NCBI GenBank assembly: GCA_947085185.1
Contig: CAMTVK010000007.1
Coordinates: forward strand, 1-64,000
Direction: 5' to 3'
From: Candidatus Fraserbacteria bacterium
Lineage (GTDB): Bacteria; Bipolaricaulota; Bipolaricaulia; RBG-16-55-9; DRXL01
Length of the DNA stretch: 64,000 nt
In this document: piece after piece, positions 52,850 through 58,230 of the stretch
Numbering within the stretch: the first letter of the stretch is position 1
Layout: each line of letters begins with the position of its first letter
Translations under genes and position numbers: made by a program
The notes under the pieces: generated by a model
Told to the model about the DNA's origin: nothing
The model's input: the letters and a program-made list of their open reading frames with translations, nothing else
Databases searched by the model: none

Positions 52850-54157
52850 TTACCGCCACAGATTCTGCTCTTCTCCAGGGCCCACAGAGATCATCGAGAT
52901 GGGGATGCCGAGCTCATCTTCGATGAGCTGCACGTAGTGTTGGGCTGCTTTGGGGAGCTCGGAGAACTCTCGGCAATCCGAGAGCGGTTCCTCCCAGCCA
53001 GGCACTCGTTCGTAGATGGGCTCGCACTCTTGGAGGATCTCACAGACGGTGGGGAAGTCGTGCAGGACGCTCCCGTGATAGCGATAGCGGGTCGCTATAG
53101 GGATCTCAGCGAAGCCGCTGAGCACGTCGAGCTTGGTGAGGGCCAGCTCCGTGAAGCCGTTGACCATAGTAGCATAGCGCAGGGCGACGAGATCGAGCCA
53201 GCCGCAGCGGCGCGGCCGCCCTGTGGTCGTGCCGAACTCATGCCCTTGGACGCGCAAGCGCTCCCCAGCGCCGTCAAGCGCCTCCGTGGGAAACGGCCCA
53301 TAGCCCACTCGGGTCGTATACGCCTTGGCCACTCCAATCACCCGACCGACTCGCTGCGGCGGCACCCCAGCCCCAGTCCCAATCCCGCCAATAGTCGGCG
53401 TCGAAGACGTCACATACGGATACGTCCCCAGGTCGAGATCGAGTAAAGTCGCTTGAGCCCCTTCAAAGATTATATATTTATTCTGATCCAGAGCGTCGTT
53501 GAGCAAGCGCACGGTGTCTACAATGCGATCCCGAAAGCTCTCGGAGAGCCGCAGCACGTCTTCGGCGAGCGCATCGGCGCGCAGGCGCACAAGCTCAGGC
53601 TGATCGGGCCAAAGTCTCTGATAGCGCTCCAAGACAGCCGCGAGTCTTTCCGCAAATCTCTGGGGGAAGAGCAAGTCCGACATTCTCAGTCCGATGCGGG
53701 CAGCCTTATCACGATAAGCTGGGCCGATTCCCTTGGCGGTCGTATCGAGGGCCGTCTGGGAGCCCTCGAGTCTCTCAACAATGGGATGATAGGGCAGAAG
53801 GAGATGCGCGTTGGAGCTGATAGAGATCTGGGGCTCGCTGCCGCGCAGCTCACGGAGCGCATTGAGCTCTTGGACGAGCGCGTAAGGGTCAATGACCATG
53901 CCGTGGGCCAAGACCCCAGCACAGCCCTCATGGAGCGCTCCGGAGGGGATCAAATGAAACTTAAACTCTTGCGCTGTCTGGTCGCTTTCTGCTCCTGCTC
54001 CGACCGTCAGGGGGACGCGGCTGGCAACCACACGATGTCCGGCATTGGTACCCCCGTTGAAACGCACACAATAGTCGGCGCCTCTGCAAAGCACATGGAC
54101 GATCTTGCCCTTGCCCTCATCGCCCCATTGAGCGCCCAAGACAGCTACAGCTGGCAT
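52850..54157 (-). CDS. purA: Adenylosuccinate synthetase
   Basis: QWGDEGKGK, GIGPAY, EGAQ and GTTTGRPRRCGW. Confidence 0.96.
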   Translation of the reverse strand: MPAVAVLGAQWGDEGKGKIVHVLCRGADYCVRFNGGTNAGHRVVASRVPLTVGAGAESDQTAQEFKFHLIPSGALHEGCAGVLAHGMVIDPYALVQELNALRELRGSEPQISISSNAHLLLPYHPIVERLEGSQTALDTTAKGIGPAYRDKAARIGLRMSDLLFPQRFAERLAAVLERYQRLWPDQPELVRLRADALAEDVLRLSESFRDRIVDTVRLLNDALDQNKYIIFEGAQATLLDLDLGTYPYVTSSTPTIGGIGTGAGVPPQRVGRVIGVAKAYTTRVGYGPFPTEALDGAGERLRVQGHEFGTTTGRPRRCGWLDLVALRYATMVNGFTELALTKLDVLSGFAEIPIATRYRYHGSVLHDFPTVCEILQECEPIYERVPGWEEPLSDCREFSELPKAAQHYVQLIEDELGIPISMISVGPGEEQNLWR

Positions 54158-54912
54158 AGCATCACGTCCTCACTGGCGAGCTCGCGCACGCCCTCTGGAG
54201 TGCGCACGACCAGTGTACCCGATCGCCCTAGCCCAAGCACCTTGGCTTCTATCTTGCTCTTTGTGTCCGTCAGGATCGCGATGCGCTTGGGAAGCACCGA
54301 GAGCTCTTGCCAATATGTACGGACAAAATCGAATCCCTCTGAGAGAAATCGCTCGTAGCTCTGCGCCATGGCCCATAAAGCTATCTCAAAGAACTCCCCG
54401 AGAGAGACGGGCTTGCCCAACTCACGAGCCAGGGATGTCGCTGGGATGCGCGTCTCTTTGGGCAGCTCGTTATTGACGTTGACGCCAATCCCGGCGATGA
54501 GCCACTCAATCGTGTGGGCACGGCTGCTCAGCTCGAGCAAAATTCCCCCAAGCTTGTGATACTTCACCCCGGCCCCGCCAAGGGAGAGGGAATGGGGGTG
54601 AGGTACATACAGATCGTTGGGCCACTTGACGCCCACGCCCAGCCCCCAGCGCTCTCTCAGCGCTTGCGCCAGCGAGACCGCGATGAGCATCGCGATACAA
54701 CTGGCTTGCTCAACTGGGATCGGCGGCCTCAAGAGGATCGAGAACCATGCGCCACCCCACGATGACGTCCAGCTGCGCCCCCAGCGGCCCTTCCCGGCTG
54801 TCTGCTCGCGCGCGATGATCACCGTCCCTTCGGGAGCTCCAGAGCATGCCAGCTCTCTCAGATATTCATTGGTCGAGCCCAGCTTGGGAAATATCTCAAT
54901 CTGATAGGTCAT
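54145..54912 (-). CDS. birA: Biotin protein ligase, class I (no HTH)
   Basis: STN, QTAGKGRWGRSW, KWPND, KLGGIL and GIGVN. Confidence 0.93.
   Translation of the reverse strand: MTYQIEIFPKLGSTNEYLRELACSGAPEGTVIIAREQTAGKGRWGRSWTSSWGGAWFSILLRPPIPVEQASCIAMLIAVSLAQALRERWGLGVGVKWPNDLYVPHPHSLSLGGAGVKYHKLGGILLELSSRAHTIEWLIAGIGVNVNNELPKETRIPATSLARELGKPVSLGEFFEIALWAMAQSYERFLSEGFDFVRTYWQELSVLPKRIAILTDTKSKIEAKVLGLGRSGTLVVRTPEGVRELASEDVMLCQL
54562..54603. repeat. Palindromic element in frame inside birA
   Basis: 42 bp with arms cttcacccc/ggggtgagg and a gggagaggg core; encodes PHPHSLSLGGAGVK. Confidence 0.75.
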
Positions 54913-57900
54913 CGTGTGCGCACCAGGCCGATCTTGGCGGGATGGCCATTGACATCGAGTTCCTTAGTGAACTCGACCCTCTCAAAAGAGCTGTTGCGCT
55001 GCAGCGTGACTGCCAGGGTCTCTTCTTGAATGGCCTTCGCAGACCGCTCGATCGCTGCCTGAAGTTCTTGGTCAGCCTCGTAGTAGAGCTCAATGCGATC
55101 GGAGACTTCAAAGCCCGCTTCTTTTCGGCTCTCTTGCACAAGTCTGATGAACTCCCGCATCAAGCCCTCTTGGCGCAGCTCATCGTCAATCTGGGTGTTG
55201 ATCAAGACCTTCACGTCGCCCTCAGCGCCTTCAGCAAAGCCCTCGCGCGGAACAAGCACGACGCGCACATGCGTACCCTCGACAAGCTCGATCTCCTGGC
55301 CTTCTACGGCCAGGCGCAGCCTCTTTTGGGCTTTCAGCTCCCCTGCAAGCTGCACACGCTTGTCATGATCAGCCCCGTTCAGCTCCTCTAGGACAGCCAG
55401 AGCTTTAGGGGCTAAACCGCGAAGATCCTTCCCCAGCGCAGACTTCTCGTATGCAAACTTGGGAGTATAGAACGCATACAGCTTCTCTTCGGTGATCCAT
55501 TCGAGCTTCTTCACGTTCAACTCCCGCTTAATTAAATCCAGATAGGCTTGTTCAAGTGGCGGTCTTCTCTCAAGCACGATAGCGCCAGACAGCGGCTGTC
55601 GGACCTTGATCTGCACTCTATTGCGCGCTTGCAGGCCTGCCGTGACGATCTGCCGCGCCCGCTCCATCTGCCTTTCAAGTTCCGTATCGCGCAGGGACTC
55701 GTTCACCGACGGCCACTCGCACAGATGGACGCTCTCGGGCATCTCTTCTGTCTTTAAATTCTGATAGATCGCCTCGGCCAAGAAGGGCACAAACGGCGCA
55801 AGCAGCTTGGCAAAATCTACCAAGATTTCGTAGAGCGTCATGTACGCGGAAGTCTTATCAGCGTTCCACCCACTGCCCCAAAAGCGTGCCCGAGAATTCC
55901 GCACGTACCAATTGCTGAGGTCGTCCACGAACGTCTTGATTGCTCCTGTAGCCGCGACAGGGTCGTACTCGTCCAGCGCTTTTGTAGTCACGCTCACCGT
56001 GTGAGAAAAGCGCGAAAGAATCCAGCGATCAAGCAAAGCGCGCTCTGACAGACTCTGTCGCGCGGGATCAAAATCATCTATCTTCGCGTAGAGCGCGAAG
56101 AAGTTATAGACATTGCGCACGGTCTCCAAGACCCCGCGCGCTTCGACGACTTCCTTGGGATCAAGCCGCCGGTCACGCCACGGCGCGCTCCCCGCATAGA
56201 AGAACCAGCGCACGGCATCCGCGCCGTAGACGTTCACCACATCCCAAGGGTCGAGCACGTTGCCCAAGCTCTTGGACATCTTCTTGCCCGATTCGTCCAA
56301 GCCCATCCCCGTCACCACCACGTGCTTATACGGATGGGGATAGGGATGCTCTTCGTAAAGCAGCGTGCTTGTGACTAAGAGCGAGTAGAACCAGCCGCGC
56401 GTCTGGTCAATCCCTTCGGCAATGAAATCTGCAGGGAACTGCTCTGCAAAGAGCTCTTGGTTTTCGAAGGGGTAATGCCATTGGGCAGTGTGCATCATCC
56501 CCGAATCGAACCAACAGTCAATGACATAGGGGACGCGGCGCATCGTGCCGCCACACGAACACTTCAAGAGCACATCGTCAATCCAAGGACGATGAAACTC
56601 GACGGAGCGCGCGCGCTCCCCCTCGACAGCTAAGTCCACAAGCTCTTGGCGGCTCCCAATACAATGCTCTCTGCGACACTGCTCGCACACCCATAAGGGC
56701 AAGGGCGTCCCCCAGTAGCGGTCGCGCGAGAGCGCCCAGTCTTTCATAGTCTCTAAGAAATTACCAAAGCGCCCATCGCGAAAGTGCTCCGGATGCCAGC
56801 GAATCTGTTTGTTGTTCTCGATGATCTGCTTCTGTTTGGCGGTCGTCTTGATGAAGTACGAATCCAAAGCATAGTAGAGCAGCGGGGTCTTGCAGCGCCA
56901 ACAGAACGGATAATCGTGCTCGTACCTCCCAGACTTATAGAGCACCCCACGTTGCTTGAGATCTTGGATGATGAGGGCGTCGGCGTCTTTGACAAACTTC
57001 CCTGCAGCCAATGGGAATTCTTCGGTGAACTTCCCTTCTAAGTCCACAGGGTTGACGAAGGGCAGCCCTTCAGCCTGTCCAAGTTGATAGTCCTCCTCGC
57101 CGAACGCCGGCGCAATATGCACAATGCCCGTGCCTTCTTTGAGTGAGACAAAATCTGCCGCGACGACGCGATAAGCTCTAGGGTCGTTGCTCAGTCTATA
57201 AGCGGGTTCGTAGCGCCAGCCCACAAGCTCTGCCCCGCGCATCGTGCCGACGATCTGAGGAGTGTGCTTCCCCAAGATGGGCTCGACAAGTTCTTGGGCG
57301 AGAATGAAGATCTCTTCGCCGACTTTGGCCAGAGCATACGTATAGTCGGGGCCGACAGCCAGCGCGACGTTGCTGGGCACCGTCCAGGGGGTCGTCGTCC
57401 AGACAAGAAACCAGACTTCGTCTGGACTATTCGCCGTGCCGCCTTCGGCGGCACGATGTACAGTCCAGGCGAAGCCTGGCCAGCCTCTGGCCGGCGAAGA
57501 TGAATGGTCTAGGCGGAGCCTAGCCTGGAGTTTGAGGAAGATGGACGGGTCTTTGACGGTCTCGTAGCCTTGAGCAACTTCGTGGGAGCTGAGAGGCGTG
57601 CCGCAGCGTGGGCAGTAGGGCAGAACTTTATGCCCTTTATACAGCAAGCCCTTCTCCCAGATCCTCTTGAGCGCCCACCATACCGACTCAATATAGTCGT
57701 TGGTGTACGTGATATATGCGTTCTCTTGGTCGTACCAGAAGCCCATTCTGGGGTCGAAGGCGATCCAGTCGTTCTTATACTTCCAGACGTTTTCCTTGCA
57801 TTTTCTCACGAAGTTTTCGACCCCAAACGCCTCGATCTCGCGCTTGCTGTTGAGCCCGAGCTCTTTCTCCACTTTGAGCTCGACGGGCAGGCCGTGGGTA

Positions 57901-58163
57901 TCCCAGCCCCCCTTCTTGATGACATGATACCCTTGCATCAGCTTGTATCTGGGGAAGAGATCTTTATAGACGCGCGGGATGAGATGCCCGAAGTGGGGCT
58001 TATCGTTGGCGGTGGGCGGGCCCTCGTAGAAGACGAAGCGCTTCTTTTCTCTGTGTGGTTCGTTGCGACTCAGGCTCTTTTGGGGAATGATGGCCTGCTC
58101 CCAAAACTGCAGCACGGCTTCTTCGAGCGCCAGGGGGTCTTTGAGCTTCTCGTATTTGGGCAT
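54909..58163 (-). CDS. ileS: Isoleucine--tRNA ligase, type 2
   Basis: HFGH, GWDTHGLP, WTTTPW, DQTRGWF, KMSKS and a long IleRS2-type C-terminus. Confidence 0.96.
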   Translation of the reverse strand: MPKYEKLKDPLALEEAVLQFWEQAIIPQKSLSRNEPHREKKRFVFYEGPPTANDKPHFGHLIPRVYKDLFPRYKLMQGYHVIKKGGWDTHGLPVELKVEKELGLNSKREIEAFGVENFVRKCKENVWKYKNDWIAFDPRMGFWYDQENAYITYTNDYIESVWWALKRIWEKGLLYKGHKVLPYCPRCGTPLSSHEVAQGYETVKDPSIFLKLQARLRLDHSSSPARGWPGFAWTVHRAAEGGTANSPDEVWFLVWTTTPWTVPSNVALAVGPDYTYALAKVGEEIFILAQELVEPILGKHTPQIVGTMRGAELVGWRYEPAYRLSNDPRAYRVVAADFVSLKEGTGIVHIAPAFGEEDYQLGQAEGLPFVNPVDLEGKFTEEFPLAAGKFVKDADALIIQDLKQRGVLYKSGRYEHDYPFCWRCKTPLLYYALDSYFIKTTAKQKQIIENNKQIRWHPEHFRDGRFGNFLETMKDWALSRDRYWGTPLPLWVCEQCRREHCIGSRQELVDLAVEGERARSVEFHRPWIDDVLLKCSCGGTMRRVPYVIDCWFDSGMMHTAQWHYPFENQELFAEQFPADFIAEGIDQTRGWFYSLLVTSTLLYEEHPYPHPYKHVVVTGMGLDESGKKMSKSLGNVLDPWDVVNVYGADAVRWFFYAGSAPWRDRRLDPKEVVEARGVLETVRNVYNFFALYAKIDDFDPARQSLSERALLDRWILSRFSHTVSVTTKALDEYDPVAATGAIKTFVDDLSNWYVRNSRARFWGSGWNADKTSAYMTLYEILVDFAKLLAPFVPFLAEAIYQNLKTEEMPESVHLCEWPSVNESLRDTELERQMERARQIVTAGLQARNRVQIKVRQPLSGAIVLERRPPLEQAYLDLIKRELNVKKLEWITEEKLYAFYTPKFAYEKSALGKDLRGLAPKALAVLEELNGADHDKRVQLAGELKAQKRLRLAVEGQEIELVEGTHVRVVLVPREGFAEGAEGDVKVLINTQIDDELRQEGLMREFIRLVQESRKEAGFEVSDRIELYYEADQELQAAIERSAKAIQEETLAVTLQRNSSFERVEFTKELDVNGHPAKIGLVRTR
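57422..57523. repeat. Multi-hairpin palindromic element in frame inside ileS
   Basis: Four short inverted repeats plus imperfect outer arms within 102 bp, coinciding with an extra peptide before WTTTPW. Confidence 0.75.
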
Positions 58164-58230
58164 AGCGCAGGCCACCTCCAGTTGACAGTTCTGAGTGAGT
58201 CAGTTTCACACTGACGAACTGACCAAGGGA

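Follow-up and report, generated by a model that had tools for sequence, protein, structure and literature searches.

The window, as we call the whole 64,000-nucleotide stretch of DNA analysed, carries ileS on its minus strand. The encoded isoleucyl-tRNA synthetase (IleRS) was assigned to type 2 by Pfam, by sequence search of the PDB and by fold search, and its nearest named relatives belong to Candidatus Bipolaricaulota / Acetothermia. Inside the gene, beside a motif of the CP1 editing domain, lies a stretch of repeat-derived DNA, and the features of the locus are as follows.

54909..58175, minus strand: ileS, type-2 isoleucyl-tRNA synthetase, 1088 aa as called (ORF call with Pfam tRNA-synt_1 and Anticodon_1; best solved relatives are type-2 IleRS)
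57384..57401, minus strand: Thr-rich WTTTPW motif of the CP1 editing domain, intact (invariant in a 73-sequence alignment; pLDDT about 97)
57411..57528, no strand assigned: all repeat-derived DNA, 1.5 copies plus a cassette remnant (orthologue spacer, fold controls, copy census, run X5 contig)
57411..57479, plus strand: complete 69-bp unit of a dispersed three-hairpin repeat, subfamily 1 (83-96% identity to six further full-length copies in G000, the genome of the window; 33-copy alignment)
57411..57425, plus strand: left terminal hairpin CCAGAC-TTC-GTCTGG, loop cGAAg on the minus strand
57435..57455, plus strand: central 9-bp triloop hairpin, cGAAg on the minus strand, found in either orientation among copies
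57465..57479, plus strand: right terminal hairpin of the 69-bp unit, loop cGAAg on the plus strand
57479..57523, plus strand: right half of a subfamily-2 copy, probably older (matches 70-73 bp copies; whole in the X5 relative)
57479-57495, plus strand: central hairpin of the subfamily-2 half, TCT loop by family pattern
57509-57523, plus strand: degenerate terminal hairpin of the subfamily-2 half

The spacer between DPSI and WTTTPW measured 50 aa here versus 20 in most orthologues, which bears out the roughly 30 extra residues before WTTTPW reported in a preliminary description of this DNA. The ileS reading frame stays open across all the hairpins in the ORF call, and the GTGIVH and GEED columns of the editing domain were also intact in the 73-sequence alignment. 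The repeat-derived DNA encodes IleRS residues ~217-255 and takes the place of an 8-residue ancestral turn. An AlphaFold model of residues 174-518, run with 73 sequences, placed the insert between two beta-strands at a pLDDT of about 45-53, with flanks of 85-98 and a mean of 88.5; a low value is expected at an insert without aligned homologues and is no proof of disorder. In this model the insert is predicted to form a harmless surface loop. The left terminal hairpin end gives the Trp codon preceding FLVW, and in all four ileS genes occupied by the three-hairpin repeat the TGG of the element replaces the Tyr, His or Phe before FLVW. By supplying the aromatic residue that opens the next beta-strand, this TGG would explain why one junction recurs in four unrelated lineages, and a terminal TGG at this junction is what selection would favour.

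The 69-bp unit has two terminal hairpins of 6 bp and a central one of 9 bp, each with a triloop. The four hairpins of the preliminary description were all found where it had placed them; a fifth, at 57411-57425, had been missed and forms the true left end, with the element DNA running from 57411 to 57528. The cGNAg loops it described are present, divided between the strands (two on plus, two on minus) rather than all on one, and its third hairpin exists and is better read by family pattern as 57479-57495 with a TCT loop. Its outer arms (57422-57432 and 57502-57512) are likewise present, match at 9 of 11 positions and turn out to be arms of the older subfamily-2 copy.

We compared the folding of this region with that of several controls. 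For 57415-57530, the DNA fold reached a z of -6.9 and the RNA fold a z of -6.0, and none of 200 dinucleotide shuffles was as good in either case. Folding was also stronger than in synonymous-codon controls, a comparison proposed in the preliminary description, with z from -3.7 to -7.7 over 12 tests and 0 or 1 of 500 controls as good per test. The insert folded better than all 194 other ileS windows of equal length.

Contigs from two sequencing runs covered the site. A contig from run X3 spans 57306-57801 with zero differences (the run may be the window's own sample), and because of this match the insert is not an assembly artefact. A contig from run X5, a run of another study, comes from a close relative. 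It has a depth of 3 and shows 12 differences; positions 57432-57478 are missing, with 7 other letters in their place, and 10 extra letters stand at 57528. The allele of this relative, read from that one low-depth contig, is a single subfamily-2 copy, net 30 nt shorter and in frame, with ~50 nt read in another frame. The G000 allele therefore likely descends from a subfamily-2 copy whose left arm was later overwritten by a copy of subfamily 1, the direction being our reconstruction. These results agree with the earlier proposal of a nested, DNA-structured mobile element, since the core is a dispersed repeat and the X5 relative has a single copy at the site.

Units of the repeat family were 66-73 bp long and contained three triloop hairpins. 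In 33 aligned copies, which are kin and so give counts that are not independent, 691 of 693 cells of the three-hairpin fold were paired, with 17 double-sided changes at two pairs and neither a one-sided change nor a G-U variant in any of the three stems. Four copies carry a swap from C-G to G-C that leaves the small terminal hairpin intact and breaks an alternative long-rod fold, and the three-hairpin fold is favoured over the rod. The 3' loop was GNA in 75 of 77 distinct copies and the central triloop read R-N-A on one strand in 58 of 72 (16 of the 64 triplets qualify; both orientations occur), counts to which the kinship of copies also applies, while the 5' loop is partly fixed by the search pattern. 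Either strand finishes in a cGNAg hairpin. Triloops of the cGNAg or GNA kind are a DNA motif and form unusually stable DNA hairpins. Both ends of the repeat are paired, CCAG/CTGG-type stems; they are imperfectly inverted, with 92% of outer-helix cells paired, like the terminal inverted repeats of a classical MITE. The stems are conserved through double-sided changes only while the middles of the loops vary, and the encoded ileS peptide is unlike among relatives, as the earlier view that this is not a protein-selected loop had anticipated.

A genome search suggested earlier located 13 copies of the repeat in G000; the profile, built from 77 distinct copies, listed 15 loci, and two weak matches below 9 bits were dropped. 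Eight copies are no more than 25 nt away from a tRNA gene. Four sit in frame inside genes (IleRS, ArgRS, RecO and a TPP enzyme), and the remaining one is intergenic. Across taxonomic family f1, 17 of 18 genomes contained the terminal hairpin, with 3-67 matches each and 0 in the reversed control, and no genome outside f1 gave a strong match among 151 sampled from the phylum. In samples of three other phyla the genomes with matches (0/351, 1/24 and 2/301, the last with 3 control hits) did not exceed the control. Plasmids and phages gave no meaningful match, and the search of viral contigs returned a single terminal hairpin linked to a tRNA, besides two chance matches. An exact terminal hairpin follows a tRNA 3' end directly in seemingly unrelated organisms (L162 / L242 and L191), and one of these adjoins an integrase-like ORF on a viral contig. 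In G003, the RNase P RNA gene (L116 802-1305) holds two repeat copies, in helices P3 and P12.

Six of the G000 copies sit at a tRNA 3' end, with gaps of -3 to 1 nt and a chance per site of ~0.002, and altogether 10 of the 46 tRNA/tmRNA genes are touched. Together with the RNase P RNA copies and the strong RNA folding, this placement would suit a repeat kept for a role in RNA, namely tRNA precursor processing, stability or termination, with the ileS copy regulating its mRNA. However, the same sites, tRNA junctions included, carry both orientations, the stems are devoid of G-U variants, GNA triloops are a motif of DNA, and the ileS loop is short in several close relatives, so we regard an RNA role as improbable.

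We then examined how copies sit at their sites. The target-site duplication of a classical MITE was absent at 87 of 112 sites, the same as in the null (847/1120). Copies often lay in boxC or CACGG palindromes or beside their own cassettes, and flank complementarity was slightly above chance (11 of 112 under the 5% threshold), which hints faintly at a general rule of insertion at hairpin centres. For reading frames, 180 distinct sites from relatives were mapped onto G000. Of the 58 intragenic sites, which lie inside long ORFs (33 hosts), 55 changed in net length by a multiple of three, compared with 37 of the 122 sites elsewhere; orthologous sites are not independent of one another. The element is stop-poor, with 5.0 of 6 frames open on average versus 3.2 in shuffles, and several frames on both strands are used across host genes.

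An insert in an essential gene, adjoining an editing motif, might be removed at the RNA or protein level, as an intron or intein is, or might encode a selected peptide. Frame was kept at nearly all intragenic sites, though, which makes the RNA-level excision raised in the preliminary description unlikely and speaks against the other variants. Precise loss would moreover leave a spacer ~9 residues below the usual 20, the ancestral turn having been replaced, and a selected peptide is at odds with the same DNA being read in different frames in close relatives and across host genes. We consider removal or peptide selection very improbable; as judged from the sequence, the ileS insert is likely translated rather than excised.

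The comparison of orthologues, another check suggested at the outset, showed that the occupant of the ileS loop differs among relatives and is not conserved at the protein level. With classes labelled by eye, the loop held the three-hairpin repeat in G000, G007, G008 and L190, boxC-like repeats in G006, G012, G016, G017 and L008, a third, short-period repeat type in G004, and a short turn in G005, G009, G001 and G015. Sister taxa differed in occupant, and on a 16-row tree built without the loop its state changed 8 times (minimum 3; shuffled mean 8.4). A single ancestral insertion was rejected, the four occupants of the three-hairpin repeat failing to form a clade (p-AU 4e-57). The changes reflect repeated insertion or inter-species recombination, which the count takes together, as it does gain and loss. 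A second ileS loop (window ~56027; L400 878-946) holds a full in-frame copy in G006, adding 45 nt. Elsewhere in the window, birA contains a short in-frame C-rich/G-rich, boxC-like stretch (54544-54615, minus strand), and purA has an apparent extra stretch near the N-terminus with no obvious hairpin (53954-54037, minus strand).

Different repeat families also occupied the same loop in different species in dxr (L371, L376, L382-L385), in the TPP-enzyme gene (L334, L347-L350) and in argS (L335, L338-L341). In recO (L336 in G000; also L342-L346 and L377-L381), the element is present in G000 and G007, and 9 orthologues are 17 aa shorter than G000. Within the genus, recO alleles that lack the element agree with its end at 10-13 of 14 nt, where 28 of 5000 random windows reach 11, and recO in other genera matches at only 8 of 14. 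From these sequences, the resemblance may be an insertion guide or the scar of an earlier copy. The ends of the element were not notably similar to empty ileS loops (8-10 of 14), and a general microhomology rule would thus have strong support at recO and none at ileS.

To identify a mobilising enzyme, we searched G000 and its relatives, the genomes covered being incomplete. No Y1_Tnp was found in G000. The 35 genomes searched in the order gave 13 Y1 loci, and the three-hairpin repeat flanked none of them, as it would in a REPIN/RAYT system. The only GIY-YIG protein of G000 has 619 aa. A search with a GIY-YIG protein gave no relatives on viral contigs and two plasmid matches. No GIY-YIG partner linked to the repeat was found in G000, in 18 genomes of the family or in 184 of the phylum, and among 23 hits in the 184 phylum genomes, none of the 14 loci tested was flanked by it, as the single-domain GIY-YIG gene of an Ssn/SRM system would be. 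The two DUF559 hits in G000 had no repeat copy nearby. No nuclease motif appeared in 465 short ORFs near 292 copies (245 loci), and Pfam on 105 of 317 short-ORF cluster representatives returned only Uma2 and a BFN nuclease, each beside few sites. Several small nuclease genes with other repeats were seen along the way. A 130-aa Ssn-like GIY-YIG ORF in G012 (L144 1495-1887) lies inside an ABC transporter operon and ends in a CGTC-type repeat pair. In G183, small GIY-YIG genes with a different inverted repeat are apparently nested in another small gene, three times (L165, L178, L182); their host gene presumably encodes a four-helix-bundle protein. RAYT-like Y1 genes of the genus (L328, L330, L331) have GTAG-type repeats beside or inside the CDS.

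The failure of these searches to find a partner enzyme favours an account without any dedicated enzyme, in which palindromes are replication-fragile and host repair (template switching, microhomology-guided patching, gene conversion between copies and DNA exchange among co-occurring species) spreads, flips and swaps cassettes. Such repair would fit the overwriting of the same loops in ileS, dxr, argS and the TPP-enzyme gene by unrelated families, the resemblance of empty recO alleles of the genus to the element end, and the inversion in place of whole elements and central hairpins. Against it, terminal sequences are near-invariant at many unlinked sites, as expected of an enzyme recognition site, copy number varies 20-fold among congeners, and the recO resemblance, which falls to 8 of 14 in other genera, may be the scar of an earlier copy. 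We hold pure host repair to be quite possible, if short of probable; it concerns only how the repeat moves and leaves the identity of the insert unaffected.

Our main reading, to which we give a probability of roughly three in four, is that the ileS insert comprises 1.5 copies of the three-hairpin repeat, that this repeat is likely a selfish element of the non-autonomous kind, and that the insert is likely translated into a surface loop, predicted to be disordered, which hardly affects the enzyme. Within this reading of a selfish element, we tentatively favour a trans-acting hairpin nuclease with replacement-type integration over pure host repair. A single-stranded copy would fold into GNA-triloop hairpins and be nicked in trans by a small ssDNA nuclease, specific for hairpins and akin to Ssn or RAYT. 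The nicked copy would be pasted by strand invasion, the target stretch being replaced and not duplicated, and integration would favour hairpin-prone places such as tRNA ends, other palindromes and earlier copies. In essential genes, selection would retain only frame-preserving events in tolerant loops. That the element acts as ssDNA and is mobile at present we infer.

We compared the repeat with described families. Rickettsia RPEs are in-frame palindromic repeats in conserved proteins and RNA genes (PMC2229807, PMC10969869), and an RPE-bearing guanylate kinase is translated and active as an enzyme (PMC2229807). As far as the available portions of these papers describe them, RPEs resemble the present repeat in being lineage-specific palindromes that occur between genes, in frame in conserved proteins and in the RNase P RNA gene, and in being apparently near-neutral. 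As in an RPE-like functional class, the repeat is a dispersed multi-copy palindrome inserted in frame relative to orthologues (ileS +30 aa, recO +17 aa). By description, not by sequence match, it is set apart from the RPE families in those portions: it has 66-73 bp and three short triloop hairpins versus 105-150 bp and one long stem, lacks a conserved peptide, uses several frames on both strands, replaces its target and has a strong tRNA-end bias.

With GTAG/CGTC REPs and REP dimers the repeat shares short hairpins, tandem cassettes, nesting in palindromes and intragenic positions, including tRNA synthetases; in the part of PMC3733652 drawn on here, REPs are found within tRNA synthetase genes, and some lie nested inside other palindromes. 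No target-site duplication was seen here. Unlike REPs so described, it has no unpaired GTAG/CGTC foot, CGTC lying inside the terminal stem, and the RAYT-like genes of the genus carry the different, GTAG-type repeat. According to the excerpt of PMC11893778 used, Ssn GIY-YIG nucleases cut their own cognate hairpin repeats as ssDNA, and this hairpin family (NTS/SRM repeats) serves as a model for the proposed mobiliser, although the Ssn-like genes of the phylum are flanked by CGTC-type repeats and not by the three-hairpin repeat. BoxC / TMECO repeats are described in PMC4666352, also drawn on in part. BoxC-like repeats fill the same IleRS loop in sister species and the three-hairpin repeat nests inside them; the two are unrelated in sequence, with the purine/pyrimidine tracts of BoxC in that source contrasting with GNA triloop hairpins.

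In Rfam, matches stayed below the gathering threshold (best 20 bits, E about 0.1), and neither there nor in the literature covered, with subscription journals largely outside coverage, was a description of the repeat family or of serial overwriting found. Lacking the REP foot, linkage to RAYT or Ssn genes and target-site duplication, the repeat works like an RPE or REP and stands outside those families. It is apparently an undescribed family of a known kind, for which replacement-type insertion, tRNA-end bias, fast turnover of occupants and the missing mobiliser are the notable traits.

Taken singly, the ileS insert is what a known process ordinarily yields, and it is probably neutral. Unrelated repeats have repeatedly rewritten the same loops of IleRS, ArgRS, Dxr and the TPP enzyme, fast enough to saturate the gene tree, and such loop indels are unsuited as phylogenetic markers in this group. 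Loop rewriting maps those loops of essential enzymes that tolerate arbitrary peptides, and it raises the question of what moves a hairpin repeat that has no REP foot, target duplication or linked nuclease. A more far-reaching idea, which we think rather unlikely, is an undescribed 'overwrite' form of ssDNA transposition in f1 Bipolaricaulota, in which a candidate enzyme would recognise GNA-triloop hairpins and swap the repeat for resident hairpins or tRNA-end sequence without duplication, several repeat families competing for the same loops of dozens of essential proteins and rewriting them serially. If this were true, these genomes would hold a natural, replicated loop-replacement screen across the core proteome.
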